A stretch of DNA of 56,864 nucleotides from a virus (lineage: Duplodnaviria > Caudoviricetes): IMG/VR virus record IMGVR_UViG_3300028392_000077, positions 1 to 56,864 of that record. One strand, 5' to 3'. The position numbers and the translations under genes are program-made. How positions within the stretch are numbered: the stretch's first letter is position 1; each line of letters starts with the position of its first letter. Below are positions 6,101-54,692 of the stretch, one piece after another. Below the pieces are notes generated by a model that searched no databases, was not told where the DNA came from, and saw nothing but the letters and a program-made list of their open reading frames with translations.

Positions 6101-7956
6101 ACTGTATTTGCTTCTACTGTTGTTAATCTGGTATTCTGGGTAGCATCAACACCAGAAACATATGAGATTTGACCATCAACATATGATTTTAACTGAGTAT
6201 TAGCACTAGTGATAGCACCATCGGTATAAGATTTTAACTGTGTATTAGCTAATCCAATATTAGTATTGGTCTGATTTAAAGCACCAAATAAGTAAACTGT
6301 ATTGGCTTCAGTGGTGGTGATTCTGGTGTTCTGCGTTGTATCTACACCTTGGGTGTAGATTGTATTTGCTTTATTACTATTAATCTGTGTAACATAGGCA
6401 TCAGTGAACGCAGTATTCTGCCAAGTGTTATCTGGAAATATTAAATGTGAATTTGCAAAAGACCAAGTATTGTTTATTGTACCATCGGTTCCAGTTACGA
6501 TTTGAACTGTGTCGTATCTGTTGGAACCTAATTTAGTTTCGTTATTTAATGAGAGGAAATTTCCATCATAACTACCACCATAAATTGAATTCAATTGTAT
6601 GGATTTTCCGACAAATCTAGGCCCAGCACCAGAACCACCAGATGGATTGATTCCGATAATACCAATATCACTCATTTCAATACTGGATGTACCACCAGGT
6701 GAATATAATATTGGCGTGTATACTGCTAGATTTGCAGTTAAGTTGTTTGCAGTAATATCACCAGAAACTACACCACCAGTTAGTGGTAACGCATTGTTGG
6801 CTGTGTTCCATGCTGATTGTATGCTATTGTTTTGTGTTGCATTAATAACAGAAACATATGATATTTGGCCATCAACATAAGATTTCAACTGTGTATTTGC
6901 AGAAGATACTGATGATGAAATTAAACCATCAGTATATGATTTCAACTGTGTATTAGCAGAACTAATAGCACCATCCGTATATGCCTTTAATTGAGTATTG
7001 GCTGATGTTACTATACCGTCTGTATATGATTTCAGTTGGGTGTTAGCTGAAGATACAGCAGAACTAATAGCACCATCTGTGTATGATTTTAACTGTGTAT
7101 TAGCTAATCCAATATTAGTATTGGTCTGATTCAAAGCACCGAACAGATAAACTGTATTAGCTTCAACGGTACTAATTCTAGTGTTCTGAGTTGAATCCAC
7201 ACCTTGGATATAGATTGTATTTGCACTTGCGAAATTGGCAGTATTAGCTGTATCTCTGACAAATTGACTATCTGAAATGACCGCAGTGGTCATATAGGTG
7301 CCGTCAGCAAACTTCAGAACATTGGTATTCGCTTCAATAAACTTAGCATTGGCCGCAACAGTCAGGCCAATACTCATATTATCAATGGTACCTGTGTTGG
7401 CCGAATAGATAGTTACATGGTCACTACCTGTATTTGGACCGTACACATTAATACTGGAAGCGGAACCATAAACTTCAAGACTGGTCTGGTCAATACCACC
7501 ATAGATATTGGCGGAAATAATGTCAGCAACAACCCAGTTGTTTGCTAAATCATAATGGAATGATGGGTTTGAACTGAATGTGCCATGAAGACCTACGAAC
7601 TGTATATCGCCGATGTTGCCATTAGCTGATCCGCCTCCACCACCTCCACCCCCACCTTCACCAAATGCAGAGATTGTAATTGTTTTTGTTAGTGTGCAAG
7701 CAGTAAGTGCAACATTTGCACCAGAAACAAAATTAAGTGTATCTGAACCAGATGACGCTAATATCAGTGTCGTATCTACACAGATAGCATCAAAAGACTT
7801 CTGATTGGTTATATAAGATACTGTGCCGTCGGGTTTGGAATAGAATAACTTGGCGTCCGCAGCGTTTAGTGCAATTTCACCATTCGCTAATGAAGACGGA
7901 GTATTACCACTAATTAGTGATTTTTTTAATTTAATTGTGGTATTTGATGTCGTCAT
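121..7956 (-). CDS. Giant tail fibre protein (2611 aa) with Mtd-N-like N-terminus and C-terminal intramolecular chaperone (peptidase S74)
   Basis: N-terminal IKLKKS..P.SL..GEIALN.AD.KLFY; poly-Gly hinge; dozens of ANTQLKxYxDG repeats; C-terminal SDETQKTN...GVIAQQLEKILP...VNYSGLIAYLIQSNKEL chaperone signature. Confidence 0.88.
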   Translation of the reverse strand: MTTSNTTIKLKKSLISGNTPSSLANGEIALNAADAKLFYSKPDGTVSYITNQKSFDAICVDTTLILASSGSDTLNFVSGANVALTACTLTKTITISAFGEGGGGGGGGGSANGNIGDIQFVGLHGTFSSNPSFHYDLANNWVVADIISANIYGGIDQTSLEVYGSASSINVYGPNTGSDHVTIYSANTGTIDNMSIGLTVAANAKFIEANTNVLKFADGTYMTTAVISDSQFVRDTANTANFASANTIYIQGVDSTQNTRISTVEANTVYLFGALNQTNTNIGLANTQLKSYTDGAISSAVSSANTQLKSYTDGIVTSANTQLKAYTDGAISSANTQLKSYTDGLISSSVSSANTQLKSYVDGQISYVSVINATQNNSIQSAWNTANNALPLTGGVVSGDITANNLTANLAVYTPILYSPGGTSSIEMSDIGIIGINPSGGSGAGPRFVGKSIQLNSIYGGSYDGNFLSLNNETKLGSNRYDTVQIVTGTDGTINNTWSFANSHLIFPDNTWQNTAFTDAYVTQINSNKANTIYTQGVDTTQNTRITTTEANTVYLFGALNQTNTNIGLANTQLKSYTDGAITSANTQLKSYVDGQISYVSGVDATQNTRLTTVEANTVYLFGALNQTNTNIVLANTQLKSYTDGAIGLANTQLKSYVDGQVSTTLSYVSGIDTEQNNRISTVESNTIYLFGALNATNTNITNANTQLKSYTDGAIASANTQLKSHIDGQISYVSNVNTTQNTRLSTVESNTTYLFGALDATNNSIISANTQLKSYTDGLVSTSVSSANTQLKSYTDGAISSANNQLKSYVDGQISYNQGIDNTQNTRLLTVEANTVYLFGALNATNNSIISANTQLQSYTDGAISSAVTSANTQLKSYTDGAISSSVSSANTQLKSYVDGVISSSNTQLQSYVDGQISYVNNINNTQNTNITTATNLAQGAYNTANLKFNTSGGNITGDVTISANLTITGNLTVSGIVTTVSSNNLILKDNMIYLNDDNNVANPDLGFAGNYNDGTYHHAGFFRDHSDGIWKVFDNYKPEPDASPYIDTSNATFRIADFQANTVTFGKISTSSTQLVTNLNADYLNGQHGSYYAVDSEQNGINATQNTNITNTQTWLDANIAYISGVNTAQNSSIVNANTQLKAYTDGLVSSSVSSANTQLKAYTDGAISSAVSSANTQLQSYTDGVISSSVSSANTQLKSYTDGQISYVSSVDTTQNTRLNTVEANTVYLFGALNATNTNIGLANTQLKSYTDGIVTLANTQLKSYTDGAISSSVTSANTQLKSYTDGFISYISGVDIAQNTRISTVEANTVYLFGALNQTNTNIGLANTQLKAYTDGLVSSANTQLKSYTDGIVTSANTQLKSYTDGAISSANTQLKAYTDGAISSSVTSANTQLKAYTDGQISYVSGVDTTQNTSISALQSLANTDVTSISVTATTYGNSSYIPVTTLTANGRVLSVTNTAISIPGTAVTSIVDSANVATYETITTATTGTYYPYLSLGTSGNNIAYSNSAYVFDVVNGRMGISNTTPTVSLTVGGSIRVTNLESQSYESTPGAFVVGNIGTFVRNENDTTTTTARFGTINQPKANNQSGAATSYGTYNGPIVSSTTSVNAYGTYNNIIRGGNNPYDTGTAGFLYGTFNNIRHLYDVNANTSIVTGSAYTTYNAQTFALGSLNNSYSVYNAISLGTNAAASANITNFYGSYLTASIGAAAGANTSTITNYYGAYYGAPQVASSGRITNRYAIYSSDPASNTFFQGPIYSANTITASTIIAGGVDIINYVNSSNTQLKAYVDGQVSSTLSYVSGVDTSQNTRLTTVEANTVYLFGALNQTNTNIALANTQLKSYTDGIVTSANTQLKSYTDDAISSSVSSANTQLKSYVDGQVSSTLSYVSGVDNSQNTRITNVEANTVYLFGALNATNTSITNANTQLKAYTDGAIALANTQLKSYVDGQISYVSGVDTSQNTSITALQTLANTDYTTISVTATTYGNSSYIPVTTLAANGRVLSVTNTAISIPGTAVTSIVSSANVSTYDSITTATTGTYYPQLTAGVSGNNQSYANNAFVFDITNGRLGISNTSPTVALTVGGSVRVANLESQAFESVAGTTSNYNIGTLVRNENDAATSTIRVGTLNQPKANNQSGAATAYGTYNTPIVSSNTSVVVYGNYTLIDRGGNNPYDTATTGTMVGTYNNIRHLSHANANTSISSSTLYATYNNINCSVGSVTNAYGTYNRGYVGYNSPLTLSTITNYYGTYTLFAAGSGVGPTGTLTNYFGAYFDTPLVGTNGVITNKYAIYSADVASNTFFQGPIYSGNTITASTIIAGGVDVINYVNSANTQLKSYTDGQISYGSGVNTSQNTSISALQTLANTDYTTISVTAGDYGSATIVPVIKLAANGRISSISNTNITAGATITDDTTTNASRYVMLGQSTSGSYTVANTSSTKLTYNPSTGTLSATAFVGNGAGLTGISAGATITDDTTTNATRYIMLGQSSSGSYLVANTSTSKLYFNPSTGTTYSTLFQSLSDETQKTNLTPIVNATDTLKQIDGFEFDWRDNGLKSAGVIAQQLEKILPWLVSENDGVKSVNYSGLIAYLIQSNKELSDRIEKLENK
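950..3720 (-). repeat. Internal duplication of a ~370-aa module (copies at ~950-2075 and ~2600-3720, offset 1647 nt)
   Basis: Matching borders at a constant offset: tcaactccaccagc at 977 and 2624; ctgttcctggaattgatattgc at 1896 and 3543. Confidence 0.9.
2100..7110 (-). repeat. Clusters of coding repeats ANTQLK(S/A)Y(T/V)DG and TQNTRxxTVEANTVYLFGALN
   Basis: Directly visible in protein and DNA; degenerate units separated by variable-length Ser/Val/Ala linkers. Confidence 0.95.
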
Positions 7957-18944: not shown

Positions 18945-21900
18945 TTAGGCTGTTGCAATTGCTCTTAGATTTTTGACTTGTGGAACAACAGTTGAATTGT
19001 CCGAGTAGAAACATATTTTAATCGAGAACACTTTGAAATTATTGTATGACACAGTTGATGTTTTAATATCATTGTAAACAATATTCAATGCTTGATATGT
19101 ATCTGTTATCCAATCATTCGGACCAGTACTTGGTAAACCACCACCTGGAGTAAATATTGGATTCATCAGATGATATGGTTGATCATCAAAATTATTTCCA
19201 TCATTGGCATTCAACACTTTGCAATATACTTCTATACTTGTTCCTGGTTGACGATTTACATCCAAATAAACTGTCAATCCTGTCGAATCAAAGTTATTTG
19301 CTAATGTTACTCTCTTTGTAATATACTTCGACAATGCTCCACCATTTCTAAAACCTGATTGCGATTCACTATAGATTTTATCTGCGGTATGTGCATTTAC
19401 TACGTTATTAACAAGAACTGGATACAATCTTTCCAAGTCAATGACGGGAGATGTCCATCTGTCTGTGTTAGTCAATGTTGTACGAACAACAATGTCACCA
19501 CTATCTAATTGTTTCTGTCTAGACGGCAATATGTGATTCTGTTTGGTAGTTATAGGAATAAAGTCGGACATCAAAGTGGTTGCATAATCCTTAGTCTGAA
19601 TAGAATACTCAATAGAATCCAATGCATTAAATGTCAGATCGCTGTTATTAAGATTAATCAAATCGTATGTCTTTAATATATTTGAGGTATTTGATGTGAA
19701 CTGTACTGACGCATAACCACCCGCAAAGTCACAAACATATGCACGGAAACATAACGTTTCTCCTCCAGCAGGAATCCAAGTCTGGGAATTCTGGGACTTG
19801 AATAATGCGCCAGCATAAGATACTGAAGTTATCGTCTTCCGTGTTCCATATTGGACTTCACCCATTTTGGATGCATAAACTGCATATTGATCCGAATTGG
19901 TTGATATCATAATGCTGTATTGACCTGCAGGCAAATAAATTGGATGATCAAATTGGAAGTTAGTTGGTAAATAAATCGAATCGTAAACGTTATTTGGATT
20001 AGGTGTATTGATACTATCCGGATTCTTGGTCACAATAGAACCAGGAATATCGTTTACTGCATCAGGATAACCATTAACAACTGGACGTATACGAACTGTG
20101 ACTGGTACCAAAGGATCTTTCTTTGCAAAGAATATATCAACAGAAGATATAAATGCACCATTCGGGAATTGACCTTCTGTGATGAAGAAATTCTGTGATA
20201 GAGGATCTTGTAATGCACCAAGATATGCAGCTTGACCAACTTTACCCTCAACATATGCTTGATTTGCAGCAGATCTATAATAAGTTTCAACTGTGTTTAT
20301 CGCAGCAGATTCACTGAGTTTGCCCAACAAATATTGACCATACACAGTCTCCATTCCTACCATTATTCCGGCAAATTGAGTTAGTGTTGGTGGATTTTGA
20401 ATACTCTTTGCGAGATTATATGCAGTACCCGTGAATACGCTGTTTCCACATATACTGGATAACGCTTGATATGCTCCGCCTGCAGCATTCATCATCTTTC
20501 TAACCATAGCAATACCATCGGATTTTGATAGTGTTTGTGCTCTAGTTGTTACTGCATCATTCGACCATATTCCTAGATTTTGCATGGGTTCTGCCATAGA
20601 AGACACTACCCAGTTTCGACTTACACCACCAATTGTTACTGTAGTTGTAAAAGTTTGACTGTATGATCCAATCTGTGCAGATTTCACTTGGAAGAACAAT
20701 CGACCCGAAGAGTCTGCCGTAACAGTTTGTGAAGTAGAGAATACTCCAGGCGAAGCTCCACCACCACCTGGTGGCCAGAAGTTAAAATCACTATTCGCTA
20801 ATATTGTACCACCACCAGAAGCGGTAACACTTATTGGTTGATTTGGTATAGCTCCAGTTACAGTAATTACACCACTTGTGACTCCATTGAGTATCAGGCC
20901 CACATTGTCGGGTCCTTGAGGTATATCAAATTGAATATTTTGTGGTGCTTGAGTCTTAGTCAATACTGTAAAGGTTCCTGAAGCAGATCCAGCTGATGAA
21001 TAACCTGTAACAGTAGTATCTGTGGATTGTCCGCTAGAGGGACTTGAATGATTTCTTAATTGTATCAAGAAAGAACCACCACCATCTGCTGTTACGGATC
21101 CATTTGTCATCCAAGGAGCACTATCCGATATGGATGATGTTGCTGCTCTGAATGAACCACCGGAGACTGATAATGTAACCGTTGCGCCGCTACCCCAATT
21201 CGAACCTGTTGCCTGGTTTGACGAATAATCCGTATTAAATTCCACACTCGACTGCGATATGAACGAGGAAAAAGAAGGTGGCGAAGGTGTAGGTACTGGT
21301 GTAGGTACTGGTGTAGGTACTGGTGTAGGTACTGGTGTAGGTACTGGTGTAGGTACTGGACTCGGCGTTGGCGTCGGAGTTGGTACTGGTGTAGGTACTG
21401 GTGTAGGTACTGGTGTAGGTACTGGACTCGGCGGTGCAACATATGCCAGAGTTGTAATTACATATGTTCCCGTAACCGAACCCACTGATACCTGCACACT
21501 GACCGGAGTTGAATAACTTGTACTTGCAGTTCCCCTCGCAGCAACAATCAATGTTCCTGTACCACTTGTTGTAACAGACACAGCTCCACCCGTTACCCAA
21601 GGATCACTATCCGATATAGATGATGTTCCTGCTTTAAATGCACCACCAGAAACAGATACAAGAACTGGAGCATTTGGTGATAAACCCGTTACTGTAACTG
21701 AACTTGATGTTTGGGTTGAACCCAGTGCAACACCATTCACAGGAGTAAATGAGAATTGATCAGGAGTAGTATCTGCTATCTTAGTGGTGATTACATAATG
21801 TACAGGAATGTTTCCAAGTGAGATGATGACATCTGTTGGAGTATCATATCTAGTACTTGAGAAACCTTTAGCTGCAAGAACTATGCTACCAGTATTACTT

Positions 21901-24900
21901 GTAGTTACAGTTTTTGATGATGCAAATATAGTACTTAATTGTGTGGTTCCTGCGTCCACTAAACCGTTTGATGCGGTTAGAGTTATACTTGTATTCGAAG
22001 GTAAACCGTATACAGGAGTTGTTGCAGAGGTGTGTGATGTGTTGACATCCACTCTATCCGCAGAAGTAATAATAAAAGGTATAGGATTAACTGCTAATTG
22101 TACTCCAGCTGTGTTTGCACCCGCCTCTGTGTTTATAGATACTTGTGAAGCTGGTTTTGGTGTAGATATCGGCGGCCGAGTTGAAACCACAGTTGATTGT
22201 AGTGATTCCAGTGTTCCTTGGGCGTAGAATACTGCTTTGGCATATGAATTTCCGTAAATCGGACTGAGTATGCTATCTGAGAATTCTATGATAATTTGTC
22301 CTGTTGGAAACTTGGCAAGATCACTGGAAGGTAGAGTGATCGTGCCTGATGCATGACCATTTCTATCAGTTCTCAACATACCACCACTAACTCCATTTGC
22401 TTGTGTGTTTGCACGAAGTACTGCTGGAGTTGTATTACTGGATGCAATATAAATTGAAGGTGTCGCAATATAATTGTACCCCGGATTGGTTACATTGACT
22501 GCTGTAACCACACCATTAACAACGTCTGCGGTTGCAATTGCTGATGCTGAACTTGTTCCTGCAATCTGAACAATGGATTGACCAATACCGTTCGGATATC
22601 CAGAACCACCATTAATAACATCAATCGCATACAATCCATCAACAGAACTGGAGTCTGCACTAACAGTGAAGTCCATTGTGGTTCTATTGATGTATGTGTG
22701 CAAGACAGTGTATGGAGGCATGCCATATACATCAAACTTAATGGGAATTGATCTTGCGTAAGGAATAATGGCAGTGTTGAGTATCTGCGTTGAAGAAGAT
22801 ACTGTGATATTTCCACTAGTTAATGCGCCAGTTAATCCTTTTGATGTTAATGCGTCCTTAATTGCAACCGTGTCTCTTGTAATTTGTGTCAACTGACTTG
22901 ATGTTACAACATTTTGTCCGGACCAGTTAAACTGCCAATCATTCCATTGTGTGCCGAAACCGTTTCCACTTGTTGCTGAAATCCATGCGGCTTGATCTTC
23001 GTTGACAACATTAATTATTGGTTGATTATCTACATCGTACCAGGTATCACTAGAAGGAGATAATGTTACTGTTCCACTCCAATAACTGACGTTGAATGGA
23101 TTTACGTTGACAATTTCTGTCGCAACATTCTGATTAACAATTATATGTTCGTCGTATGAGAATGTAATTATATTATTCTTCACGGACAAATAATTATTTG
23201 TCTTACCAGTAGCCGCTCCCGTGTTTGGAGAAGTAACATAAGTTCCTTGTGTTAAACTATTGTTCAACTTTTCGGTAACAGAAGTAAATGCCGGTCTGGC
23301 TAATTGTGCAGTGGAATCTATTGATACTGCATAATCAGGATTACCAACATCACCCACACTATGACCTTTGAAACTATCAACCAAGAAACCATTCTTAAAT
23401 AATAATTGTGTTCCCGTAGAATCTGTAACGTCACTACCCCTTACTTCTTTTTCTAAAAGAGATAATGCAGTATAATATTCAATGTTTGTGATTCTCTTAT
23501 CCAATACTCCAATATCTCTCATGGTATATCTTCTGAGATTGGTTGGAGTTATTGTTATGTCATTCTTTGAATATGTGTATGCAGGAAGATTCAACGTGAA
23601 TAATGTTAGAGCGTCTGCATCATCAACAGGCTCTATTGGATTGGAATATGAAGGTTTACCCATTTTGGTTTTAAATTGACCATTAGCCTTCAAAACAATC
23701 TTGTCAATTCTACTCAAATAATATGAGTAGTTGGCGAAAGGGGTATCTAAAGGAGCGGGTAACTGGAATGAATCAAAAGTAGTTACATTAAGTCCATCAG
23801 ATCTTCTTGGTCTAAAATCCAAAACATCTCTGAGACTATATGTTACACCTGTTGACTTGGATGTAAACGATGGAATGTTTGCATAACTAATTCCAGCATA
23901 TGAGTTTACTGTTATTGGTCCTTTACCACCAGAATGTGTAAAGTAATCAACAATGACTACCACTTGACCTTTTGGACTACCCGATATATTTGTTACTGTT
24001 GCATGATCATAATAAGCATCTTTTTGTCCGTTATCGACAACATAGTTCGACAACATATTCGGAAGTTTTTTCCAGTATGCAGGAGATATATCCGGTTGTA
24101 AATTTTGATTTGAGAATGATAATGAAGTATATACGGAATCACCATATGCAATTCTTTCATCATAATTATAACTTGTCGCTGAATTCCATGTACCAGAGTA
24201 TGTGAAAGTTCCTATTTCAAACACGCCTTTAAACTTGTATACGTCTGATACGCCAATGTCGATAGCGGTTGCCATCGGATTTGCAGAAATTGATTGTGCA
24301 TGATTCGACACAAGAGTTTTATTCTTGATGGAGTCTCCAGTAATACTAATGGTAGCAAAAATGTCAGCAGTACCATTGTAACTTCCGCCCACATTAAATT
24401 GTGCTTGACCTGTTGTAATATTTGAATTTGTAACGGTTACAGCCACATTTGCAGTATCATCTAATGGAATAAGTTGACCCGCAGTGTAATTTCCATCGGT
24501 TGATTTTGCAACTAAAATATAGTATTGTCTGGCATTTGCACCAGAAATAACACCAGAACCACCCATGAAATCTTCATTCGCAGTGGTTGTATTGATTGTT
24601 GTGATACCATTATTGAATGTGACACTACCAAATCTTCTGGTTGTTATATAATTAATGTTTGATACTGAACTGATATTCTTCTGTGGAAATGGGAATATCA
24701 AAGAACTGTAATTGTTATCAACAATACCAGGTTCATCAACTTGTGCTGAAAATCCTGATGATGTAATTAAAGAAACATCAGAAAAGGTGTTGCTTCTGGA
24801 TGGAATATTAACATCAAACAGATATGCATTATACTTTGCAGATTTCAGCGATCCCGAATTGTATGAGAAATTTCTTACCTTTGCTGTACCAATTACACTC

Positions 24901-26279
24901 GATGATGCATCATACAGACTTACTGTAGTTCCAGATTGAAAATTAACAATTCCTGAAGATACGTTAGCAAGTTTGACATAATTACCATAATAGGATTCGA
25001 TGCTGATATTGGTTTGAGATTCAGTATCTCTCGCCTTTGCAATATAGTATTTTGTGGGTGCAATATGTTCTACTGCTGAACCATTCAAATAAACTTTGCC
25101 CGCACTGATCGAGGAAGTTGCATTCGCTGCAGCAGGATCACCTTCAGTGATAACCAAAGAGAATGGATTAACAACGAAGTTGCCTGCTTGATCGAATACA
25201 GATCTAGCGATAGATTTGGATATTTCAGTGAATAATGGTTTATTATTGATATCTTCCGTGACACCTTTATTAATGCGTATCAGTTCAATAAACTTAACTG
25301 TTGTCAGATTGGCAACGACCTGATCACTCAAGTAGGGTTTTGAAGTTAATGTCAATGAAACTTTATATCTATCAGCACCTGGTGCCTGATAGTTTGATGC
25401 TCCGATTGCAGGATCAAGTAGTGACGAATCTGCAAAAGAATCGACGTAAGTTTCATCCACTTCAAAACCAACAACTACTGATGGGGATGCGTTAAGTGGA
25501 TTGGGAACAATAAAAGATGATGCATTATATACGAAAAGACCATTTGTGAACCAAACACCCTCATCGATACCAACCTCTAACGCTTTAACCGAGCATTTGT
25601 TGGTTATAACAGCGGATATACTGGACAAATCACTTGTTAATGCTGTATCGAGAGTAACTTGATTGATGCCGTCAATAGAGGTTACAGTTGCATACAGATT
25701 AATTGATGCAATTGCAATAGTATCACCCACAGAAATATTTGCTGTATTAATATACAGAATATTACTCAGATACGTACCGGATGACGTTCTAGTTATTTGT
25801 TGTTCTGTTACAACAGTCGCACTATAAGAATATGAAACTGAACCATTTAGTGATGCAATTGCCTGATTCTTGGAGTTATAGAAATAAATTGTTTCTCCTG
25901 TCGAAAACAGAGTATTATTTTGTACGTTTACAGCTTTCGTTATGATGTAGAAATTTGTTATATCAACATCCACAACTTGAGCAATAAGTTTGGAATTTTG
26001 TCCTACGGCAAACAGACCGGTGAATGACTGAATATTTTCATTACTGAGTAACTTACAAGTTGTAATATTTGAATCTACAAATATATTACCGCCAGACACT
26101 TTAGAACCATCAGCATAAATGCCTGCACCAAATTTTGAAATTTGATCCTGTAGGATTGTTTGTGCTTGAGTTAGTTCTCTAGCCTGAACCGCATATCCAG
26201 GTTTAAATAGAATTCTGTGATAGTTTTTGGTGGGATCGAAATCATCATACCACGGTTCTTTATTAAACTTAATCGTCAT
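18945..26279 (-). CDS. Large virion structural protein, DUF4815 family
   Basis: PWYDDFD..KNYHRILFKPGYAVQARELTQ.QTILQ.QI, APGADRYK, RRYTMRDIG.L..RI..IEYYT.LSLLE and DPLSQNF motifs. Confidence 0.88.
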   Translation of the reverse strand: MTIKFNKEPWYDDFDPTKNYHRILFKPGYAVQARELTQAQTILQDQISKFGAGIYADGSKVSGGNIFVDSNITTCKLLSNENIQSFTGLFAVGQNSKLIAQVVDVDITNFYIITKAVNVQNNTLFSTGETIYFYNSKNQAIASLNGSVSYSYSATVVTEQQITRTSSGTYLSNILYINTANISVGDTIAIASINLYATVTSIDGINQVTLDTALTSDLSSISAVITNKCSVKALEVGIDEGVWFTNGLFVYNASSFIVPNPLNASPSVVVGFEVDETYVDSFADSSLLDPAIGASNYQAPGADRYKVSLTLTSKPYLSDQVVANLTTVKFIELIRINKGVTEDINNKPLFTEISKSIARSVFDQAGNFVVNPFSLVITEGDPAAANATSSISAGKVYLNGSAVEHIAPTKYYIAKARDTESQTNISIESYYGNYVKLANVSSGIVNFQSGTTVSLYDASSSVIGTAKVRNFSYNSGSLKSAKYNAYLFDVNIPSRSNTFSDVSLITSSGFSAQVDEPGIVDNNYSSLIFPFPQKNISSVSNINYITTRRFGSVTFNNGITTINTTTANEDFMGGSGVISGANARQYYILVAKSTDGNYTAGQLIPLDDTANVAVTVTNSNITTGQAQFNVGGSYNGTADIFATISITGDSIKNKTLVSNHAQSISANPMATAIDIGVSDVYKFKGVFEIGTFTYSGTWNSATSYNYDERIAYGDSVYTSLSFSNQNLQPDISPAYWKKLPNMLSNYVVDNGQKDAYYDHATVTNISGSPKGQVVVIVDYFTHSGGKGPITVNSYAGISYANIPSFTSKSTGVTYSLRDVLDFRPRRSDGLNVTTFDSFQLPAPLDTPFANYSYYLSRIDKIVLKANGQFKTKMGKPSYSNPIEPVDDADALTLFTLNLPAYTYSKNDITITPTNLRRYTMRDIGVLDKRITNIEYYTALSLLEKEVRGSDVTDSTGTQLLFKNGFLVDSFKGHSVGDVGNPDYAVSIDSTAQLARPAFTSVTEKLNNSLTQGTYVTSPNTGAATGKTNNYLSVKNNIITFSYDEHIIVNQNVATEIVNVNPFNVSYWSGTVTLSPSSDTWYDVDNQPIINVVNEDQAAWISATSGNGFGTQWNDWQFNWSGQNVVTSSQLTQITRDTVAIKDALTSKGLTGALTSGNITVSSSTQILNTAIIPYARSIPIKFDVYGMPPYTVLHTYINRTTMDFTVSADSSSVDGLYAIDVINGGSGYPNGIGQSIVQIAGTSSASAIATADVVNGVVTAVNVTNPGYNYIATPSIYIASSNTTPAVLRANTQANGVSGGMLRTDRNGHASGTITLPSSDLAKFPTGQIIIEFSDSILSPIYGNSYAKAVFYAQGTLESLQSTVVSTRPPISTPKPASQVSINTEAGANTAGVQLAVNPIPFIITSADRVDVNTSHTSATTPVYGLPSNTSITLTASNGLVDAGTTQLSTIFASSKTVTTSNTGSIVLAAKGFSSTRYDTPTDVIISLGNIPVHYVITTKIADTTPDQFSFTPVNGVALGSTQTSSSVTVTGLSPNAPVLVSVSGGAFKAGTSSISDSDPWVTGGAVSVTTSGTGTLIVAARGTASTSYSTPVSVQVSVGSVTGTYVITTLAYVAPPSPVPTPVPTPVPTPVPTPTPTPSPVPTPVPTPVPTPVPTPVPTPVPTPSPPSFSSFISQSSVEFNTDYSSNQATGSNWGSGATVTLSVSGGSFRAATSSISDSAPWMTNGSVTADGGGSFLIQLRNHSSPSSGQSTDTTVTGYSSAGSASGTFTVLTKTQAPQNIQFDIPQGPDNVGLILNGVTSGVITVTGAIPNQPISVTASGGGTILANSDFNFWPPGGGGASPGVFSTSQTVTADSSGRLFFQVKSAQIGSYSQTFTTTVTIGGVSRNWVVSSMAEPMQNLGIWSNDAVTTRAQTLSKSDGIAMVRKMMNAAGGAYQALSSICGNSVFTGTAYNLAKSIQNPPTLTQFAGIMVGMETVYGQYLLGKLSESAAINTVETYYRSAANQAYVEGKVGQAAYLGALQDPLSQNFFITEGQFPNGAFISSVDIFFAKKDPLVPVTVRIRPVVNGYPDAVNDIPGSIVTKNPDSINTPNPNNVYDSIYLPTNFQFDHPIYLPAGQYSIMISTNSDQYAVYASKMGEVQYGTRKTITSVSYAGALFKSQNSQTWIPAGGETLCFRAYVCDFAGGYASVQFTSNTSNILKTYDLINLNNSDLTFNALDSIEYSIQTKDYATTLMSDFIPITTKQNHILPSRQKQLDSGDIVVRTTLTNTDRWTSPVIDLERLYPVLVNNVVNAHTADKIYSESQSGFRNGGALSKYITKRVTLANNFDSTGLTVYLDVNRQPGTSIEVYCKVLNANDGNNFDDQPYHLMNPIFTPGGGLPSTGPNDWITDTYQALNIVYNDIKTSTVSYNNFKVFSIKICFYSDNSTVVPQVKNLRAIATA
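21286..21423. repeat. Perfect 12-bp tandem repeat GGTGTAGGTACT (6 + 3 copies) encoding a (PTPV)n linker
   Basis: Six exact copies at 21286-21357 and three at 21388-21423. Confidence 0.95.
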
Positions 26280-48544: not shown

Positions 48545-49444
48545 TTAATCTTCTTCTTCAGCCAACTTGGAGAAATATGCAAGATCATCGTCTTCCTCGA
48601 TGGTCGCAGTATCTTTCCATGGTGAATCATCAGCAACAGGTTTCGTCTTCACCTGTTCACGAATAGTTTCAACAGTTGTCTTAGGCTTCACATCACCAGA
48701 TAGACCCAATACACGGTCGAGACGAGTCTTCATTTCATCATATGACTTGAACTCCTTATCTGAAACAAATTCCAGAATAGAATGTTCAGACTTCCAAATC
48801 TTCTCCAATTGTTCATCGGAGAAGTTGCCTAGAGTTGATGCGGATTCAAACTCTGAAGAATCATAATTCTGATAACCAGCAATCTTACGAATCTTCATCT
48901 TGAAGTTGGCACCAGTCCACAGATCAAAAGGATTAATTGGAGATTCATCTTCAAATGCAGGATTCATTGCTTCGGTAATCTTATCAAAGATCTTCTTACC
49001 AAACTTGAACAAGAATACCTTGCCTTCATTCTCAGGATGCTTAGGATCTGAAACAACATAAACATTTGAGATATAAGTTAACTTACGCTTCTGCTTACGA
49101 ACAATGTCCTTGTTCGCTTCAATACCTGAATTCCAAAGTGCAGAATTGTGTTCACATACAGGACACGTCTGATTCTTAGTTGTCAGACAGTTATCAATCA
49201 ACCATCCACCCGGACCCTGAAACCCGTGAGTGAATACTTTCACCCATGGAAGTGCATCATCACCATCAACCTCAGGTGCAGGAAGGAATCGAATGGTAGC
49301 AATACCATTACCTGCCTTGTCTACCTCAGGCTTCCAGAATAAATGTGAATTGTCACCACCAGAATCGGAAGTGTTGAGTTGTTCGAGCGCCTTGGCGAGT
49401 TTGTCCAAATTACCAGATTGACGCTTTAGATTTGCAAATGACAT
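48545..49444 (-). CDS. gp32: Single-stranded DNA-binding protein gp32
   Basis: FWKPEVDKAGNG.A.IRFLPAP, HGFQGPGGW.I.NCLTT, CPVCE, FKFGKKIFDKI and an acidic tail. Confidence 0.96.
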   Translation of the reverse strand: MSFANLKRQSGNLDKLAKALEQLNTSDSGGDNSHLFWKPEVDKAGNGIATIRFLPAPEVDGDDALPWVKVFTHGFQGPGGWLIDNCLTTKNQTCPVCEHNSALWNSGIEANKDIVRKQKRKLTYISNVYVVSDPKHPENEGKVFLFKFGKKIFDKITEAMNPAFEDESPINPFDLWTGANFKMKIRKIAGYQNYDSSEFESASTLGNFSDEQLEKIWKSEHSILEFVSDKEFKSYDEMKTRLDRVLGLSGDVKPKTTVETIREQVKTKPVADDSPWKDTATIEEDDDLAYFSKLAEEED

Positions 49445-49545: not shown

Positions 49546-50154
49546 TCACATTTCCATTATCTTTTTCTTGAGAAAATTCTTAAATTTTACCTTGTCATAG
49601 GTAATAAATGGTGTATACTTCTCAATCTTCCTTTTCCATTCTGGCCATAAAATATCATCTGATACCTTCGTGGTCCACATAGGAGTAAAGTTCATTAGAT
49701 CATTGAGAATACATAAAGATTCTACCTCAATGCTACCTTGCATTGCTATCTCAAGCAGTTTGGGATAGTTACCTGAATTCACCACCAGAAGTTCATCTGG
49801 TTTGTTTACCTGATTGAGAATGTAATCCACATCTTGGTCAAAAATGTATGTAAGGCTTTGATTACGTTTCTTCCATTTAGTATAAGCTTCTTCACCGGAT
49901 TCACCTGTTATATCACCTACCCACTTGACTCCACGATCCACAAAATTGGAAACATAGAAATACACCAACTCTTCAAGTGAATATCTTCTTGAGAGTTTGT
50001 GGAAATAATATTTGTCCTTTCTTTTTAGAAAGGTATCTTTAGATACGTTAGTCTTGCCATTATATTTAAAGTAATCATATGATTTTGAACTGAAGTGTAG
50101 GTGAATGGCATTGTAAATTGCATATGCTGCAAAACCAGTTCCTTCTTCCATCAT
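49546..50154 (-). CDS. gp59: Helicase loader gp59
   Basis: Y.AI.LHF....YDYFKYNGK, F.KRKDKY.F.KL and KY.PF motifs; adjacent to gp32. Confidence 0.88.
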   Translation of the reverse strand: MMEEGTGFAAYAIYNAIHLHFSSKSYDYFKYNGKTNVSKDTFLKRKDKYYFHKLSRRYSLEELVYFYVSNFVDRGVKWVGDITGESGEEAYTKWKKRNQSLTYIFDQDVDYILNQVNKPDELLVVNSGNYPKLLEIAMQGSIEVESLCILNDLMNFTPMWTTKVSDDILWPEWKRKIEKYTPFITYDKVKFKNFLKKKIMEM

Positions 50155-50378
50155 ATGGGTAATCGGGAACTTCGCCTGACTAAATTATCTTTTTCAGATT
50201 CTTCACGAATCTTTGCCTTTAATACATTAGAAATGAGTGTACTAGCCACTTCCACTTCCAATCCCGTAGATTCACAATGATGAACAATGGCATCCAATCT
50301 ATTACACCTTAAATTGAATGCCAGATCCTCAATAGTTGCACTGAAGGTTTGTATTTCTTCTATGTTTGGTTTTGCCAT
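50151..50378 (-). CDS. gp33: Late transcription coactivator gp33
   Basis: F...IE......LDAIV..C....EVE.A..LIS..LK.KI..E and RLPI; gp33-59-32 synteny. Confidence 0.85.
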   Translation of the reverse strand: MAKPNIEEIQTFSATIEDLAFNLRCNRLDAIVHHCESTGLEVEVASTLISNVLKAKIREESEKDNLVRRSSRLPI

Positions 50379-50401
50379 GATTATACCGATTCAAAAATAA
50401 C

Positions 50402-50430
50402 ATTATAACATATAATAAATGACCAGTCAA
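50402..50430 (-). promoter_or_regulatory. sigma70 promoter for gp33-gp59-gp32
   Basis: TTGACT-17-TATAAT with extended TG. Confidence 0.8.
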
Positions 50431-50786
50431 TCTAAAATTTGCAGAGAGACATTTGCAACACCATCCATGCCAATAGCATTCTTGGCACCCAATGATAGAT
50501 CAATAATACGTCCTTTTATAAAAGGACCACGATCATTGATTTTGACTATGACAGATTTATTATTTTTTAGATTTGTTACTTTTACTTTAGTACCAAATTT
50601 AATAGATCGATGTGCCGCAGTTAAACCGTGCATATTATATCGTTCACCTGATGCTGTCTTTCTACCATGATGCGGATAACCGTACCATGATGCAATCCCA
50701 GTTTGGGCCATTAAGTTTGTTGATACTAAAGTCAAAAGAATTATTGACCAAAGTTTTGATTTTAGATGTTTTTTAAAATACATCAT
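50427..50786 (-). CDS. rlpA: RlpA-like lytic transglycosylase (double-psi beta-barrel) with signal peptide
   Basis: [26 protein letters not shown]...FGT.VKVTNL.N..SV.V.INDRGPF..GRIIDLS. Confidence 0.93.
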
Positions 50787-50963
50787 TTTCTCCTTTTTGA
50801 TTACGAGAACAAAGTTCTCTTGATCTCCAATTACGAATTTGACTTCTTATAACTTTTTATTTTTGGAGTGTTAAACGGGACGGGAGTTGTAAATTCCCTA
50901 TTGAGTCACAGAATCATTATGAAAAGATTTTACCTATGGTTGTTTTAACGAAGTTGTAATATT

Positions 50964-50971
50964 TATTTATA
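50964..50971 (-). promoter_or_regulatory. T4 late promoter TATAAATA heading a ~170-nt leader of the RlpA-like gene
   Basis: Exact consensus just after the upstream stop codon. Confidence 0.7.
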
Positions 50972-50982
50972 ATTATTGGAAT

Positions 50983-51525
50983 TTAATCTTCTAGACGCCA
51001 ATGATAGAATGTATAAATTGCAAATTCATCTGGTTGACAATCCAATCTATCTCTCCAATGAGGATATTTTCGACCTTCCATTAATAGACCAGTGCCTACT
51101 GGAATGACGAAATCTTCTTTATCGGACTTAAACAATTCGATGTGTTGAGTATTTTGATTCCACTCATTACCATCAACAAGACTCAGTTTCGAAACACTGA
51201 GAGGCCATTTTGTTTGAATATTGGAAAAAACACAGATACCCAGAGTTATATCCAATCCTCCTCTGTCTGTGTGAATATCCAATATAGATTCATTTCTATA
51301 AATCCTCGAATAAGAATTCTCAAATTCTATGTTGGGATATTCTTCTCTAACAATATTTTCGACTTGTAACAAATATTTCAAAGTTACTGGTAGATTATAT
51401 GATCCTAGGGAGTTTTTATAATAAGGAGGTTGTTCCTCATGTAATGATCCTTTCGACCACAGTGATTGCATTGCATCCGATACCTGATCGCATTGATCAA
51501 CAGATAATATATTTTCAAACATCAT
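50983..51525 (-). CDS. 2OG-Fe(II) oxygenase-like protein
   Basis: YSRIY....L..HTDR, G....G....HWR and FYHW motifs; start at 51525 or 51522. Confidence 0.75.
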   Translation of the reverse strand: MMFENILSVDQCDQVSDAMQSLWSKGSLHEEQPPYYKNSLGSYNLPVTLKYLLQVENIVREEYPNIEFENSYSRIYRNESILDIHTDRGGLDITLGICVFSNIQTKWPLSVSKLSLVDGNEWNQNTQHIELFKSDKEDFVIPVGTGLLMEGRKYPHWRDRLDCQPDEFAIYTFYHWRLED

Positions 51526-52123
51526 TAATAACAGTCTCCCCTGCACTATTAAACTTATTTTCTCTGATCCATGTTATCAGTACATACTTTATACCAGAAG
51601 TAACAGGTAACCCTGCGTGTTCTGAGTCACGATTTAGATTACCATCAACATCAATATTTCTCCAATAACATAATAACCCCTTTTGAGGTTTCACTTTTTT
51701 ATTTAGCTGATAAAATTTTGTTTCTCCACCAGTAAAATTGTCATTTAGATATAGAATACATGAGTATATTCTTTGTCCACCTTGACTCATGGTTCTGTCA
51801 TAATAATTAGTACCTGGATGAAAAAAATCATTATGTCTTTTATATTGACATCCTATTTTATATTCTACAATGTGTGGTGTTTCGAAATTATCTATGGACA
51901 TACCAGTTAAGTCTTTTAATTTTTCCTGGTATTTTTTAATTAAATCATCACAATTATTCGATATCCAATCAAACTTAGCACTTCTATAACCGGGAACATA
52001 TTCTCCCAAAGTACCACTTCCACCATTATCGGAGTATCGAAATTCTTTAGTGTAGTTTTCTAATATAGAATCACACTCTTCTTCGGTGAAGAAATTTTCT
52101 ATTGTATGAACTTCTGTTGTCAT
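51515..52123 (-). CDS. Prolyl 4-hydroxylase-like 2OG-Fe(II) oxygenase
   Basis: ENFFTEEEC, Y..G.QY..H.DFF, GGQR....LYLND...GGET.F and H.GLPV..G.KY....W.R motifs. Confidence 0.9.
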   Translation of the reverse strand: MTTEVHTIENFFTEEECDSILENYTKEFRYSDNGGSGTLGEYVPGYRSAKFDWISNNCDDLIKKYQEKLKDLTGMSIDNFETPHIVEYKIGCQYKRHNDFFHPGTNYYDRTMSQGGQRIYSCILYLNDNFTGGETKFYQLNKKVKPQKGLLCYWRNIDVDGNLNRDSEHAGLPVTSGIKYVLITWIRENKFNSAGETVINDV

Positions 52124-52141
52124 GATTAATATTGAATTAGT

Positions 52142-52460
52142 GGTGGGTATTGAGTACCAAGGAACCCACCGAACCCCGACTAAGCAGCTAGTGCGTAGTT
52201 GTAATCGCTATCATTTGCAATTATTTTATTTATCTTCTACGACCGGGTAACCCCAATCCTAACGGCTTCCGATACTTGCCGATTCTCCGATGTTCTTTCA
52301 ATGCGCTGTCGAATCTATGTCATCCCCATCAGAAGTATTCTATACTACGTTCCACTTTGTGAAGGAATCGAACCTTCATCGCTGTATAAAATACTTTTGG
52401 TGGAGATGGCCGGTACCGCCCCGGCGTCCAACGCACCTATTTCAACATCATCAACGAATT
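52142..52460 (-). ncRNA. ssrA: Circularly permuted (two-piece) tmRNA
   Basis: Acceptor piece first (...GGAC-GCCGG-GGCGGTA-CCGGC-CATCTCC-ACCA, CCA end at 52398), then a 70-nt intervening segment, then GGGGATG...GATTCGAC from 52327. Stem has G3.U70. Tag ANDSDYNYALAA* at 52218-52180. Outer ends approximate. Confidence 0.93.
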
Positions 52461-52463
52461 CTT

Positions 52464-52691
52464 TTACTTGGTATTCGCCTTAGTGAATACTCTATCAAAC
52501 TTAGCATTCAAATCTGAATGTTCACTCTTAATGGCTTCATGGTCAGAAACAATACTAGCATGCTGTGCTTCGTGAGTTTGATGTGCTGTTTCAAGAGCAG
52601 ACACCCTATCTCGCAAAGAATCCACATCCTTAGTGGATGCACAACCGACCATACTAAACATAACCATTGCCAATACAATAAACTTACTCAT
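52464..52691 (-). CDS. Lpp/OprI-like coiled-coil lipoprotein
   Basis: Signal peptide with lipobox MVG-C17, continuous heptads, C-terminal DRVFTKANTK ending in Lys; AGGAG RBS. Confidence 0.8.
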   Translation of the reverse strand: MSKFIVLAMVMFSMVGCASTKDVDSLRDRVSALETAHQTHEAQHASIVSDHEAIKSEHSDLNAKFDRVFTKANTK

Positions 52692-52701
52692 ATTATTTCT
52701 C

Positions 52702-52857
52702 CTAATTTATATTTTCAACATCATCATTGATAAATTCATCAACGAATTCTTCTAGGCATTTACCACAACAAAGGTCATCTTCCATAAGTCTGGTTATTAA
52801 TGTTTCTTTGTCTGTATATTCAGAATTCCGAATATCTCTACAAATACAAACAACCAT
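52702..52857 (-). CDS. Bfd-like [2Fe-2S] small protein (51 aa)
   Basis: Not in ORF track. MVVCICRDIRNSEYTDKETLITRLMEDDLCCGKCLEEFVDEFINDDVENIN; CxC...CGKC as in bacterioferritin-associated ferredoxin, with a shorter spacer. Confidence 0.65.
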   Translation of the reverse strand: MVVCICRDIRNSEYTDKETLITRLMEDDLCCGKCLEEFVDEFINDDVENIN

Positions 52858-52858
52858 C

Positions 52859-52990
52859 TTACTTAATTCTTTGTGTTTTCTTGCCTTTTAAACTTTTCTT
52901 GGTAATCTTCTTGTACAGTTTAGCCTCCTTTTCAGGATTCTGCTTGAAGATTGCTTCGAAGTATTTTTGAATGAGTTCTTTAACTTTCAT
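52859..52990 (-). CDS. Small basic hypothetical protein (43 aa)
   Basis: Not in ORF track. MKVKELIQKYFEAIFKQNPEKEAKLYKKITKKSLKGKKTQRIK; ATG 6 nt after a perfect -10 box (leaderless). Confidence 0.65.
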   Translation of the reverse strand: MKVKELIQKYFEAIFKQNPEKEAKLYKKITKKSLKGKKTQRIK

Positions 52991-52996
52991 TGGAAC

Positions 52997-53025
52997 ATTA
53001 TACCACAAAGTTAGATTCCTGTCAA
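52997..53025 (-). promoter_or_regulatory. Perfect sigma70 promoter for the basic peptide/Bfd/lipoprotein/tmRNA/oxygenase unit
   Basis: TTGACA-17-TATAAT with extended TG. Confidence 0.85.
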
Positions 53026-53691
53026 TCTTTTTGGATTATCCAAGTATCTATAATACTTGATATATTCTCCTAATTTATATATATGATCTGTTGTTTTCTC
53101 GACATAGATTAATGGTTGTTCATCTTCTACTGCCATAATAATAACAATTTGATCAATAGGAATTCCAATCATTTCCTCATACATTAGTGCATATGCTGTG
53201 CATTGTGCAAAATAATCAGGAATATCTTCCTTTGATTTTAGTCTTTTACTTGTTTTAAAATCAATAACAGAAAGAGTACCATCAAATTCACCGATACAAT
53301 CAACTCTACCTGCCATCATCAATTTTAAAGACCACAGAGCGCATTCCTGATAATGAATGTTGTTGATTCTATTGAGATGTGGTTTAATCGACTGGAACAT
53401 CTCCAGTGCGTCTGGCATGGGTGTTCCGAGTGATTGATTGTTGAGATAGTTCTCACACAATGTGTGTAAATTGGTGCCCCGTCTAGATGCTTTAGCGGAT
53501 ATCTTATTGGCAACTTCTTCACCAACTCTTTGTCTCCACTCCATGATAGACTTTTTCTTTTGGGCACCAATTACAGTGGTCACTGATGGTAATTTTTCTC
53601 CCGTTGGAGTGATATAATATCTTTTACCATCTTCAAATGTTTTAGCCTCGATATCGGGTAATACCTTTGGCGGACAAAAATTAAAAATCAC
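53011..53691 (-). CDS. PD-(D/E)XK exonuclease
   Basis: GKRYY.TP.G..LPSVTTV, RGT..H...E, AGRVDCI and IDFKTS...YFAQ..AYA motifs. Confidence 0.9.
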   Translation of the reverse strand: MIFNFCPPKVLPDIEAKTFEDGKRYYITPTGEKLPSVTTVIGAQKKKSIMEWRQRVGEEVANKISAKASRRGTNLHTLCENYLNNQSLGTPMPDALEMFQSIKPHLNRINNIHYQECALWSLKLMMAGRVDCIGEFDGTLSVIDFKTSKRLKSKEDIPDYFAQCTAYALMYEEMIGIPIDQIVIIMAVEDEQPLIYVEKTTDHIYKLGEYIKYYRYLDNPKRLTGI

Positions 53692-54389
53692 AGTCCCTGT
53701 TTCTCCTTCTCTCTCAGATAATCACGAACAAAACCTGAACGTACTACATCATCAATAGTAAATCTGATTTCAGCCACATCTTCCATATTTTCCAAAATTC
53801 TCATTGCATCTTGGAATCCAGATTTCTCTCTCTTAATACTTAGGTCATTCTGATTGAAGTCACCACACAAAATAAATCTGCAATTCTCACCAATACGAGT
53901 TAATACTGTATCAATTTCATGAAATGTTGCAGACTGAAATTCATCAAAAATAATTATACTATCAGTAAAAGTTAAACCACGAAGAAAACTTGTTGTTTGA
54001 AATTCAACAATTTCCTTATTCATCAAAAAGTGCCAGGCATCTCCACGACCAATCAATTCGTTTGCAATATTCTTATACGGATCTTGATATACTTTAGATT
54101 TTTCTTCTAGAGTACCAGGAACGAAACCTAAATCTCTCGATGGTACTGCTGAACGAATAATAATAAGTTTTTTGTATTGCGAATTGCTGTCCTTGATTAT
54201 ATCCCTTAAAGCCAAAAACATTGCAAGAAATGATTTACCTGATCCAGCTGAACCAGATAATACCAAATGTTTACCATCATCAAATGATTCAAAAACTCTT
54301 TCTTGAGTTTCTGTAATAGGAATTATTCTTTTAATGGAGAAATGTTGCTTCTGTGCTTCTTCGGCAGCTGTCCTTCTTTTTGTTGCCAT
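53688..54389 (-). CDS. phoH: PhoH-like ATPase
   Basis: Walker A GSAGSGKS, LGFVPG.LEEK, FLRGLTF, DEFQ, TRIG, GD..Q.DL and DVVRSG. Confidence 0.95.
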   Translation of the reverse strand: MATKRRTAAEEAQKQHFSIKRIIPITETQERVFESFDDGKHLVLSGSAGSGKSFLAMFLALRDIIKDSNSQYKKLIIIRSAVPSRDLGFVPGTLEEKSKVYQDPYKNIANELIGRGDAWHFLMNKEIVEFQTTSFLRGLTFTDSIIIFDEFQSATFHEIDTVLTRIGENCRFILCGDFNQNDLSIKREKSGFQDAMRILENMEDVAEIRFTIDDVVRSGFVRDYLREKEKQGL

Positions 54390-54410
54390 GGTGTCCTTTT
54401 AATGTTTGTA

Positions 54411-54692
54411 TTATTCCCACTTCCTGCCCTGCGTTTTGTGGGATTTATGTAAAGTATTTCCTGGAACTGAAGCTTTAATACGATCAATAACACCATGTTC
54501 AAAAGCAGGATCACATTTCATAGTTCCTGGTACATTCATTCTGATTGGGTCCGACATTACATGAAGATTTTCTGGTGTGTGATACCTCTTTAATTGTGGA
54601 TTGTCGATAAGGAATTGGTCATATTCCTTATATGAAAAGGAATGTTCTTCAATTTCATTTGTTTCTGTGTTAACGAAGTCATAGCGGGGCAT
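54411..54692 (-). CDS. Conserved T4-like hypothetical protein (FmdB-like N-terminus lacking the Cys residues)
   Basis: MP.YDF.NTET.EI.E.......D.FL..NP pattern recalled upstream of phoH in T4-like phages. Confidence 0.7.
   Translation of the reverse strand: MPRYDFVNTETNEIEEHSFSYKEYDQFLIDNPQLKRYHTPENLHVMSDPIRMNVPGTMKCDPAFEHGVIDRIKASVPGNTLHKSHKTQGRKWE

Follow-up and report, generated by a model that had tools for sequence, protein, structure and literature searches.

A phage-borne, circularly permuted two-piece tmRNA gene at a shared locus of T4-like aquatic phages

Introduction

A viral gene in which the tRNA-like 3' half of a transfer-messenger RNA (tmRNA) precedes the 5' half raises the questions of whether a phage carries a genuine two-piece tmRNA, how the gene came to lie where it does, and what it may do for the phage. 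The gene considered here is on the minus strand of IMG/VR record IMGVR_UViG_3300028392_000077 (Duplodnaviria; Caudoviricetes), of which positions 1 to 56,864 were analyzed; this whole stretch of 56,864 nucleotides (nt) is referred to below as the window. Very probably, the gene is a true two-piece tmRNA gene that belongs to a lytic, T4-like myophage from freshwater, is under selection, is inherited with the phage lineage at a fixed place, and acts by trans-translation.

A first-pass annotation of the window, made from its letters, had implied that such a gene is new. Phage two-piece tmRNAs are, however, already published. According to one study, 402 of 18,146 phage genomes contain a tmRNA, in 133 unique forms, 53 of which are two-piece by ARAGORN, and 50 of these 53 come from marine or aquatic samples (PMC9004378). 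Its authors assign the two-piece ssrA of phage Melnitz to the alphaproteobacterial type, report a permuted tmRNA in 17 of 47 Melnitz-like contigs, describe the combination of ssrA with a glutamine riboswitch as rare, and make for Melnitz the functional proposals that are weighed below (Buchholz et al., 2022; PMC9004378). A tmRNA database paper includes RefSeq viruses and is the source of the RF04321 model (PMC11915505). Since phage two-piece tmRNAs are in print and Melnitz and HTVC008M carry one at this locus, the window is a further example and not a new phenomenon. It extends the family to an uncultured freshwater T4-like clade, most members of which keep the gene; literature searches returned no paper that describes this gene in a freshwater T4-like clade.

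Identity and architecture of the gene

A permuted tmRNA was the sole gene called by ARAGORN in the window, at 52089-52490 on the minus strand with a tag reading ANDSDYNYALAA before a stop, and no tRNA gene was called over the whole window. In a search against Rfam, tmRNA_permuted (RF04321) matched 52180-52460 on the minus strand (120.2 bits against a gathering score of 47, E = 5.9e-23, model positions 1-213), and alpha_tmRNA (RF01849) matched 52139-52502 on the same strand (96.8 bits against 50, E = 3.5e-25) over its full length, model positions 1-355. These were the only models above gathering score in the window, and alpha_tmRNA was the top-scoring member of the tmRNA clan, overlapping and lower-scoring clan matches being suppressed. 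A plant miRNA model gave one additional match near the gene, but its 24.1 bits fall short of the gathering score (60), and it was rejected as not real. The span given by the first-pass annotation, 52142-52460, is consistent with the Rfam spans, which add the strand that it had left unstated. Together, these results support the reading as a tmRNA gene that is carried by a phage, is circularly permuted, and has an acceptor stem of the Ala type and a tag ending in ...ALAA.

In the 5' to 3' direction of the minus strand, the gene runs from the helix 2 5' strands through the T arm, the acceptor 3' strand, ACCA, a spacer and the acceptor 5' strand to the helix 2 3' strands. A region that resembles the first pseudoknot (PK1) and contains one more hairpin comes next, then the tag frame and, last, a 3' hairpin. 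Its parts are as follows.

52139..52502, minus strand: whole two-piece tmRNA gene, given as the Rfam alpha_tmRNA span and not as mature ends
52398..52460, minus strand: acceptor piece, with helix 2 5' strands, T arm, CATCTCC and encoded ACCA (from sequence, the Rfam structure line and pair counts)
52409..52425, minus strand: T arm GCCGG-GGCGGTA-CCGGC with the alpha-consensus loop (from sequence and the Rfam alignment)
52328..52397, minus strand: spacer (intervening segment) of 70 nt, whose two ends pair in extension of the acceptor stem
52361..52377, minus strand: canonical tRNA-like T-arm hairpin GAAGG-TTCGATT-CCTTC within the spacer (from sequence)
52139..52327, minus strand: coding piece, with GGGGATG, helix 2 3' strands, PK1 region, tag frame and 3' hairpin (from Rfam, sequence and pair counts)
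52241-52258, minus strand: extra hairpin inside the PK1 region (from sequence)
52180..52218, minus strand: tag frame GCA AAT GAT AGC GAT TAC AAC TAC GCA CTA GCT GCT TAG, encoding ANDSDYNYALAA and a stop (from ARAGORN)
52142..52170, minus strand: 3' hairpin GGTGGGT/ACCCACC, downstream of the tag

Every feature listed by the first-pass annotation was recovered in this way. The tRNA-like 3' half (CATCTCC-ACCA, 52408-52398) does precede the 5' half (GGGGATG, 52327-52321), and GGGGATG and CATCTCC pair as a 7-bp Ala-type acceptor stem with G3.U70. Helix 2 consists of the 5' strands ATTC, GATGTT and TGCGTTG and the 3' partners CAGCGCA, AACATC and GAAT, and the two pairings that had been proposed were located as CAGCGCA (52308-52302) with TGCGTTG (52435-52429) and AACATC (52294-52289) with GATGTT (52449-52444). 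The tag frame read by ARAGORN is the one that had been proposed and ends in ALAA. The T loop GGCGGUA is likewise present, but it had been called non-canonical, and this part of the claim fails, since the loop is the consensus of the Rfam alpha_tmRNA model; it is a hallmark of that model and no peculiarity of the window gene. Of the putative PK1, the window has the first stem, CGGC/GCCG; the second was judged by eye only.

The 70-nt spacer is presumably cut out of the precursor, in which acceptor stem, spacer stem and terminal hairpin are predicted to fold as one hairpin of -34.2 kcal/mol (z = -4.89). T-arm-like hairpins occur in the spacers of 2 of the 32 homologues described below, against a mean of 0.19 after shuffling, and a 15-mer of the window's spacer hairpin was found at 1 of 220 loci, which is the window's own. 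A weaker T-arm look-alike also lies inside the spacer of contig L168.

Selection on the RNA and on the tag peptide

Conservation of the structure was analyzed in 32 homologues (the window, 28 uncultured phages and 3 cultured phages) aligned by MAFFT, an alignment that is not fitted to structure; the window's own helices were counted on it, with partners slid by 1-3 columns and 500 shuffles as controls. Standard pairs made up 90.1% of 1,538 cells, compared with 42-49% for slid partners, double changes were present in 45 of 54 pairs, and the observed measures were reached by 0 of the 500 shuffles. The T arm, a 5-bp stem with a 7-nt loop, was paired in 100% of cells with double changes at 5 of 5 pairs, and the acceptor stem in 99.6%, with G3.U70 unchanged in every homologue. 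The stem formed by the two spacer ends was paired in 97.8% of cells with covariation in 7 of 7 pairs, and the 3' hairpin in 95.8%, again with double changes in 7 of 7. Helix 2b was paired in 70% of cells, and alignment is poor there through insertions and deletions (indels). Covariation is strong across the set.

The tag was conserved at a different level. All 32 homologues have Leu at tag position -3, written with 5 different codons, and an aromatic residue at -5. Each of the two final Ala positions draws on 4 codons, and every one of the three stop codons occurs, so that the tag is conserved as a peptide via synonymous codons. It is very probable, jointly with the explanation developed below, that the gene is kept by selection in the phage lineage.

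A shared locus in T4-like aquatic phages

The genes that define the locus, as identified with PHROGs except for the small open reading frame (ORF) next to the tmRNA, are the following.

48545-49444: gp32
49546-50154: gp59
52464..52691, minus strand: upstream gene (ORF) for a 75-residue lipoprotein-like protein with lipobox MVGC
53011-53691: PD-(D/E)XK-type exonuclease
53688-54389: PhoH

T4-like structural and replication genes flank the tmRNA on both sides, and T4-like parts are found throughout the window, including baseplate wedge and hub, tail tube, tail fibers and head closure (PHROGs). The IMG/VR record is linear and estimated to be 34% complete (CheckV).

The gene was followed among relatives in a set of 80 viral contigs, chosen for a gp32 with 67-81% identity to the window's. 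ARAGORN called a permuted tmRNA in 27 of the 80, always on the gp32 strand and 1.4-4.3 kb upstream of gp32, and in 21 of the 29 contigs that reach further than 5 kb upstream of gp32. Alignment-derived profiles added both pieces in L129 and L199, which are among the 29, and in L173 and L197, which are not, plus the coding piece only in L145 and L151, the acceptor piece of L145 being located by hand. After profiles and hand check the totals are 33 of 80 contigs and 25 of the 29 that are well covered. Contig L205, the closest relative, shares the tag of the window gene and is 98.7% identical to it in the core, and its locus is 94% identical to the window over 877 nt. Searches that relied on primary sequence returned little: blastn in 'distant' mode with the 421-nt gene gave no match in 50,697 phage records, and an exact 26-mer of the coding piece had 0 matches in the viral contig set.

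Three cultured phages served as comparators: the OM43 phage Melnitz (MZ577097) and the pelagimyophages Mosig (MT647606) and HTVC008M (KC465899). Each has a permuted tmRNA above the RF04321 cut-off. The gene order is PhoH, PDDEXK nuclease, small ORFs, SsrA (annotated), gp33 and gp59 in Melnitz, the tmRNA lies between exonuclease and gp33 in HTVC008M, and the window and L205 have PhoH, exonuclease, tmRNA, a gp33-like gene, gp59 and gp32. With this common neighborhood in cultured phages, the window and L205, the locus is an old shared feature of this group of aquatic T4-like phages. The GenBank record of HTVC008M (KC465899.1) has no tmRNA feature, and the stretch matched by RF04321 (145161-145370) overlaps the end of AGE60528 (144891-145181), a coding sequence annotated as 'hypothetical protein'.

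The window gene thus resembles those of Melnitz and the pelagimyophages in its permuted order within a T4-like aquatic myophage, in its best Rfam clan model, which is alpha_tmRNA in all (Melnitz 106.7 bits, HTVC008M 83.8, Mosig 67.6, window 96.8), in a locus that runs from PhoH, PD-(D/E)XK exonuclease and small ORFs through the tmRNA to gp33 and gp59, in a tag ending in ALAA, and in that no phage SmpB was found in the window's relatives. It differs in that Melnitz has a glutamine riboswitch (RF01739, 52.8 bits), whereas none follows the window gene, an Rfam scan of 50000-54500 at E up to 1 having returned no RF01739 match. The tmRNAs of the window and the cultured phages share only 14-25% column identity in the PK1 region, their gp6 proteins are about 38% identical, and the window tmRNA directly follows a lipoprotein-like ORF and not a promoter, unlike those of Melnitz and the pelagimyophages. 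In addition, the latter are marine, whereas the window comes from freshwater samples. The freshwater label rests on two DNA runs labeled freshwater metagenome, X1 (0.89 of sampled words matched) and X2 (0.77), one of which may be the source sample; 14 further DNA runs (shares 0.20-0.46) played no part in this assignment.

Two-piece tmRNA of the alphaproteobacterial, Caulobacter type, for which Keiler, Shapiro and Williams (2000) is said to be the reference, provides a second comparison. The alphaproteobacterial RF01849 type and the window gene both have the acceptor piece first, a GGCGGUA T loop, an encoded CCA, G3.U70 and a 3' hairpin region that aligns at the 3' end of the model. Unlike that type, the window gene is carried by a phage, has a 12-residue tag in the ANDxxY-ALAA style, and has its closest bodies in phage contigs whose best model is beta_tmRNA or none. 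The helix layout, spacer stem and 3' hairpin of those beta-scoring sisters, which score best as the betaproteobacterial type RF01850, are common to the window gene, but it has an alpha T loop in place of their UUCGAUU or UGCGAAU loops. One-piece phage tmRNAs, such as those of mycobacteriophages, are also phage-encoded copies of a ribosome-rescue RNA (PMC11915505; PMC9004378), but they are not permuted, and the DS6A form is without a tag frame, whereas that of the window is intact and conserved.

Proposed function and alternative explanations

In the proposed pathway, the phage lineage would inherit the gene between PhoH/PD-(D/E)XK exonuclease and gp59/gp32, and host RNA polymerase would transcribe it, probably as one transcript with the small gene for the lipoprotein-like protein just before it. 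In the folded precursor, the spacer hairpin would close the acceptor stem, and host enzymes would excise the spacer to leave a CCA-ended acceptor piece base-paired to the coding piece. Host alanyl-tRNA synthetase would then charge the RNA via G3.U70, and host SmpB and EF-Tu would bring it to ribosomes stalled on broken mRNAs, where translation would resume on the tag frame and append ANDSDYNYALAA, marking the peptide for host proteases. The likely benefit would be free ribosomes and recycled amino acids while RNA synthesis of the infected cell shuts down.

Several points weigh against this explanation. No tmRNA was found in 4 of the 29 well-covered relatives, which indicates that the gene is dispensable for some members. 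The first PK1 stem (helix 7) is paired in 58.4% of cells, in a region where the MAFFT alignment has indels. The first-pass annotation's remark that no smpB is seen in the window agrees with a PF01668 search, which found SmpB in 0 of 5 records: the window and four large contigs related to it, including one that has terminal repeats and is 100% complete. It would hence be an SmpB of the host that the RNA has to fit. RNA-library support comes down to one contig in one run. Two such runs matched at 0.11 and 0.09 of sampled words; X23 gave one 155-nt contig (52433-52587) across the junction of the lipoprotein-like gene and the tmRNA, which is a hint only, because contigs show neither transcription, strand nor ends and may stem from DNA, and of three short pieces from X24, two fit incompletely. 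Finally, transcription, processing, charging, tagging and benefit are all inferred from sequence.

The alternative that survives best, although it is improbable, is that the phage tmRNA competes with or replaces host tmRNA, either to impose a tag and fate chosen by the phage or to damp host trans-translation. Selective tagging of host proteins is an option raised for Melnitz in its description (PMC9004378). The T-arm type varies inside the window's clade. Tags of this clade are short (for example ANDESYALAA and ANDEKFALAA) and presumably E. coli-like. On the other hand, the intact tag frame with its usual ...ALAA end and conservation at the peptide level has the look of an ordinary proteolysis tag, and sequence does not separate competition from supplementation.

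It is far less probable that the gene is a passenger with no phage role, whether as a piece of host chromosome beside an integration site or as a recent capture from an alphaproteobacterium. tmRNA genes are described as frequent integration sites, with fragments present in prophages, in two papers (PMC9004378; PMC11915505); the top Rfam model of the window gene is the alphaproteobacterial one, and many of 120 viral contigs with an alpha-type T loop have their match at a contig end. However, none of those 120 contigs is close to the window, which they match at best over 33-69 nt of the tRNA-like domain. The window gene is also complete and set within a T4-like gene order of lytic type, no tyrosine integrase was found in the window, and the locus is kept in most well-covered relatives and in all three cultured phages. 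Moreover, a 22-mer made of GGAC, the window's T arm and one further base is in no ARAGORN-recognizable tmRNA of 185,579 species genomes.

An assembly chimera or decaying pseudogene, to which contigs of the DNA runs broken inside the gene might point, is the least credible of the three, since X1 and X2 pieces tile the window's version, the independent contig L205 has the same gene, and all helices are intact and covarying. The tiling pieces are X1 records 1-5, without differing letters, and X2 record 10 (51909-52455), with a single gap. X1 and X2 contigs break at several points within the gene (window 52138-52480), with loose ends that resemble other tmRNA variants, and one contig joins 52288 to 52451, with one side of 30 nt; these breaks and this join indicate that mixed variants are present in the samples. 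The co-occurring variants seem to share short conserved blocks.

Mixed types and exchange of modules

The genuine phage tmRNA favored here belongs to a clade in which tmRNA types are mixed. Rfam searches of 18 contigs of the gp32 clade gave beta_tmRNA as best model in 13 (87.9-160.3 bits, gathering score 84), weak alpha_tmRNA in 3 (50.8-70.3 bits) and only RF04321 in 2, and the clade's T loops range over UUCGAUU, UGCGAAU, UGCAAAU, GGCAGUA and GGCGGUA. The window and L205 genes are alpha_tmRNA-scoring genes amid beta-scoring sisters at the same locus, a situation that is possibly new as judged from these model scores. Since syntenic sister genes score as beta, alphaproteobacterial descent is not implied by the window's alpha_tmRNA score alone.

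Comparison with L205 shows where two such genes differ. The acceptor stem of L205 is GGGCCAG/CTGGTCC, whereas that of the window is GGGGATG/CATCTCC, so that three pairs are altered on both strands while G3.U70 is kept, and the L205 spacer is unrelated to that of the window. Such compensatory changes with G3.U70 kept are strong comparative evidence that the RNA would be charged and used. Among 139 parsed phage tmRNAs there are 28 pairs with coding bodies at least 95% identical, and in 25 of these, spacer identity too is 89% or higher; the 3 exceptions, all in the T4-like clade, are window/L205, L181/L186 (core 100%) and L168/L189 (core 99.1%), which share the same pattern of altered acceptor stem and spacer. 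In permuted DNA the acceptor strands flank the spacer, and one recombination tract can therefore replace both with pairing kept. This pattern suggests that acceptor stem and spacer may be swapped as one cassette between otherwise near-identical genes, which is possibly new; no paper on such swapping was found in the literature. Near-identical genes that differ only in acceptor stem and spacer, with G3.U70 kept, constitute a clean natural experiment.

The T arm also appears to circulate. The 22-mer was found in 11 viral contigs, one of which is L205, and the bodies of the tmRNAs that bear it otherwise match the window over only 32-42 nt, or once at 69% over 202 nt. The presence of the same alpha-style T arm in very different phage tmRNA bodies is also possibly new. 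Contig L228 is 81% identical to L168 over 331 nt, yet L228 has the window's T arm and L168 has GGGGG-TGCGAAT-CCCCC. Five contigs (L222, L225, L226, L229 and L230) have the window's exact T arm in permuted tmRNAs with tags of 29-30 residues, AEKKGYRVSKAIFAPFFGAQTGFASTRLAA and a variant.

In the 185,579 species genomes the 22-mer had 5 matches (Micromonospora, Elusimicrobia, two Actinomycetota and Acidobacteria). ARAGORN called no tmRNA at any of the five, and four are chance matches in GC-rich DNA. In the Elusimicrobia contig, L207, from a metagenome-assembled genome, the 22-mer (about 601-622) is followed by an acceptor-like CACCTCC and then by AAAA, not ACCA, again with no ARAGORN call; a tmRNA-like fragment, or a gene that does not encode its CCA, may lie here. 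The first-pass annotation had suggested a phage-specific permuted lineage. A clade of syntenic phage tmRNAs, the T arm shared by 11 viral contigs and the lack of any ARAGORN-recognizable cellular tmRNA with it lend that suggestion partial support.

A tentative, and on balance doubtful, generalization is that the permuted tmRNA of T4-like freshwater phages evolves by module swapping, from a recombining pool of phage tmRNA modules. Acceptor 3' strand, CCA, spacer and acceptor 5' strand are adjacent in permuted DNA, so the hairpin that they form would be exchangeable as a cassette without breaking the stem. Mobile inserts borne by the spacer might drive such swaps.

Neighboring genes and expression signals

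Two further features adjoin the locus.

51515..52123, minus strand: downstream gene for a 2OG-Fe(II) oxygenase (phrog_61; PF13640, 56.9 bits)
52997..53025, minus strand: perfect sigma-70-type promoter-like site (TTGACA, 17 nt, TATAAT; TG present), some 540 nt ahead of the tmRNA

The stop codon of the lipoprotein-like gene lies 3 nt ahead of the first paired base of the tmRNA, which makes co-transcription of the two probable. No terminator-like site was found between them, and no sigma-70-type site was found within 95 nt upstream of the window tmRNA. Immediately ahead of the acceptor piece, 7 of the 32 homologues have a sigma-70-type site that matches at 10 or more of 12 positions, and 3 of these sites are perfect; shuffled controls gave a mean of 0.8 and a maximum of 5. 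In the 75-residue protein itself, a signal peptide with lipobox (...MVGC) is followed by a stretch that looks like a coiled coil and ends in K; the protein presumably resembles Braun's lipoprotein. Its match in Pfam is a weak coiled-coil one below the cut-off, and an identical copy lies directly before the tmRNA of L205.

Downstream, the oxygenase gene starts 16 nt past the end of the Rfam tmRNA match. It is followed, within 50983-52123 on the minus strand, by a gene of 187 residues with a weak PHROG match to 'ferrochelatase', and both are missing from L205, where the tmRNA is directly followed by a DPBB (RlpA-like) gene and an ORF of 187 residues with the look of a 2OG-oxygenase lies upstream instead. 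Elsewhere in the window, the structural region has two giant ORFs on the minus strand: 121-7956 (2,611 residues), which is almost without family match, and 18945-26279 (2,444 residues), with very strong matches to phrog_358 and phrog_877, both of unknown function.

Implications for phage and bacterial tmRNAs

The protein neighbors of the phage lie in more than one group. Its gp32 is nearest to those of cyanomyoviruses (55-57%), and its gp6-like wedge protein is nearest to those of HTVC008M, Melnitz and Mosig (37-38.5%), with cyanophages at 34.5-37.5%. The type of a tmRNA is unreliable as a mark of the host and should not be used to name it.

If a pool of phage tmRNA modules exists, the type of T loop would say little about the host, and modular exchange would call for caution when a host or a host transition is deduced from phage tmRNA type, as for Melnitz. 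It would also be plausible that such phages carry parts of two-piece tmRNAs from one bacterial class to another. In this way, modular exchange would bear on the relationships among the separate two-piece tmRNA lineages of bacteria.

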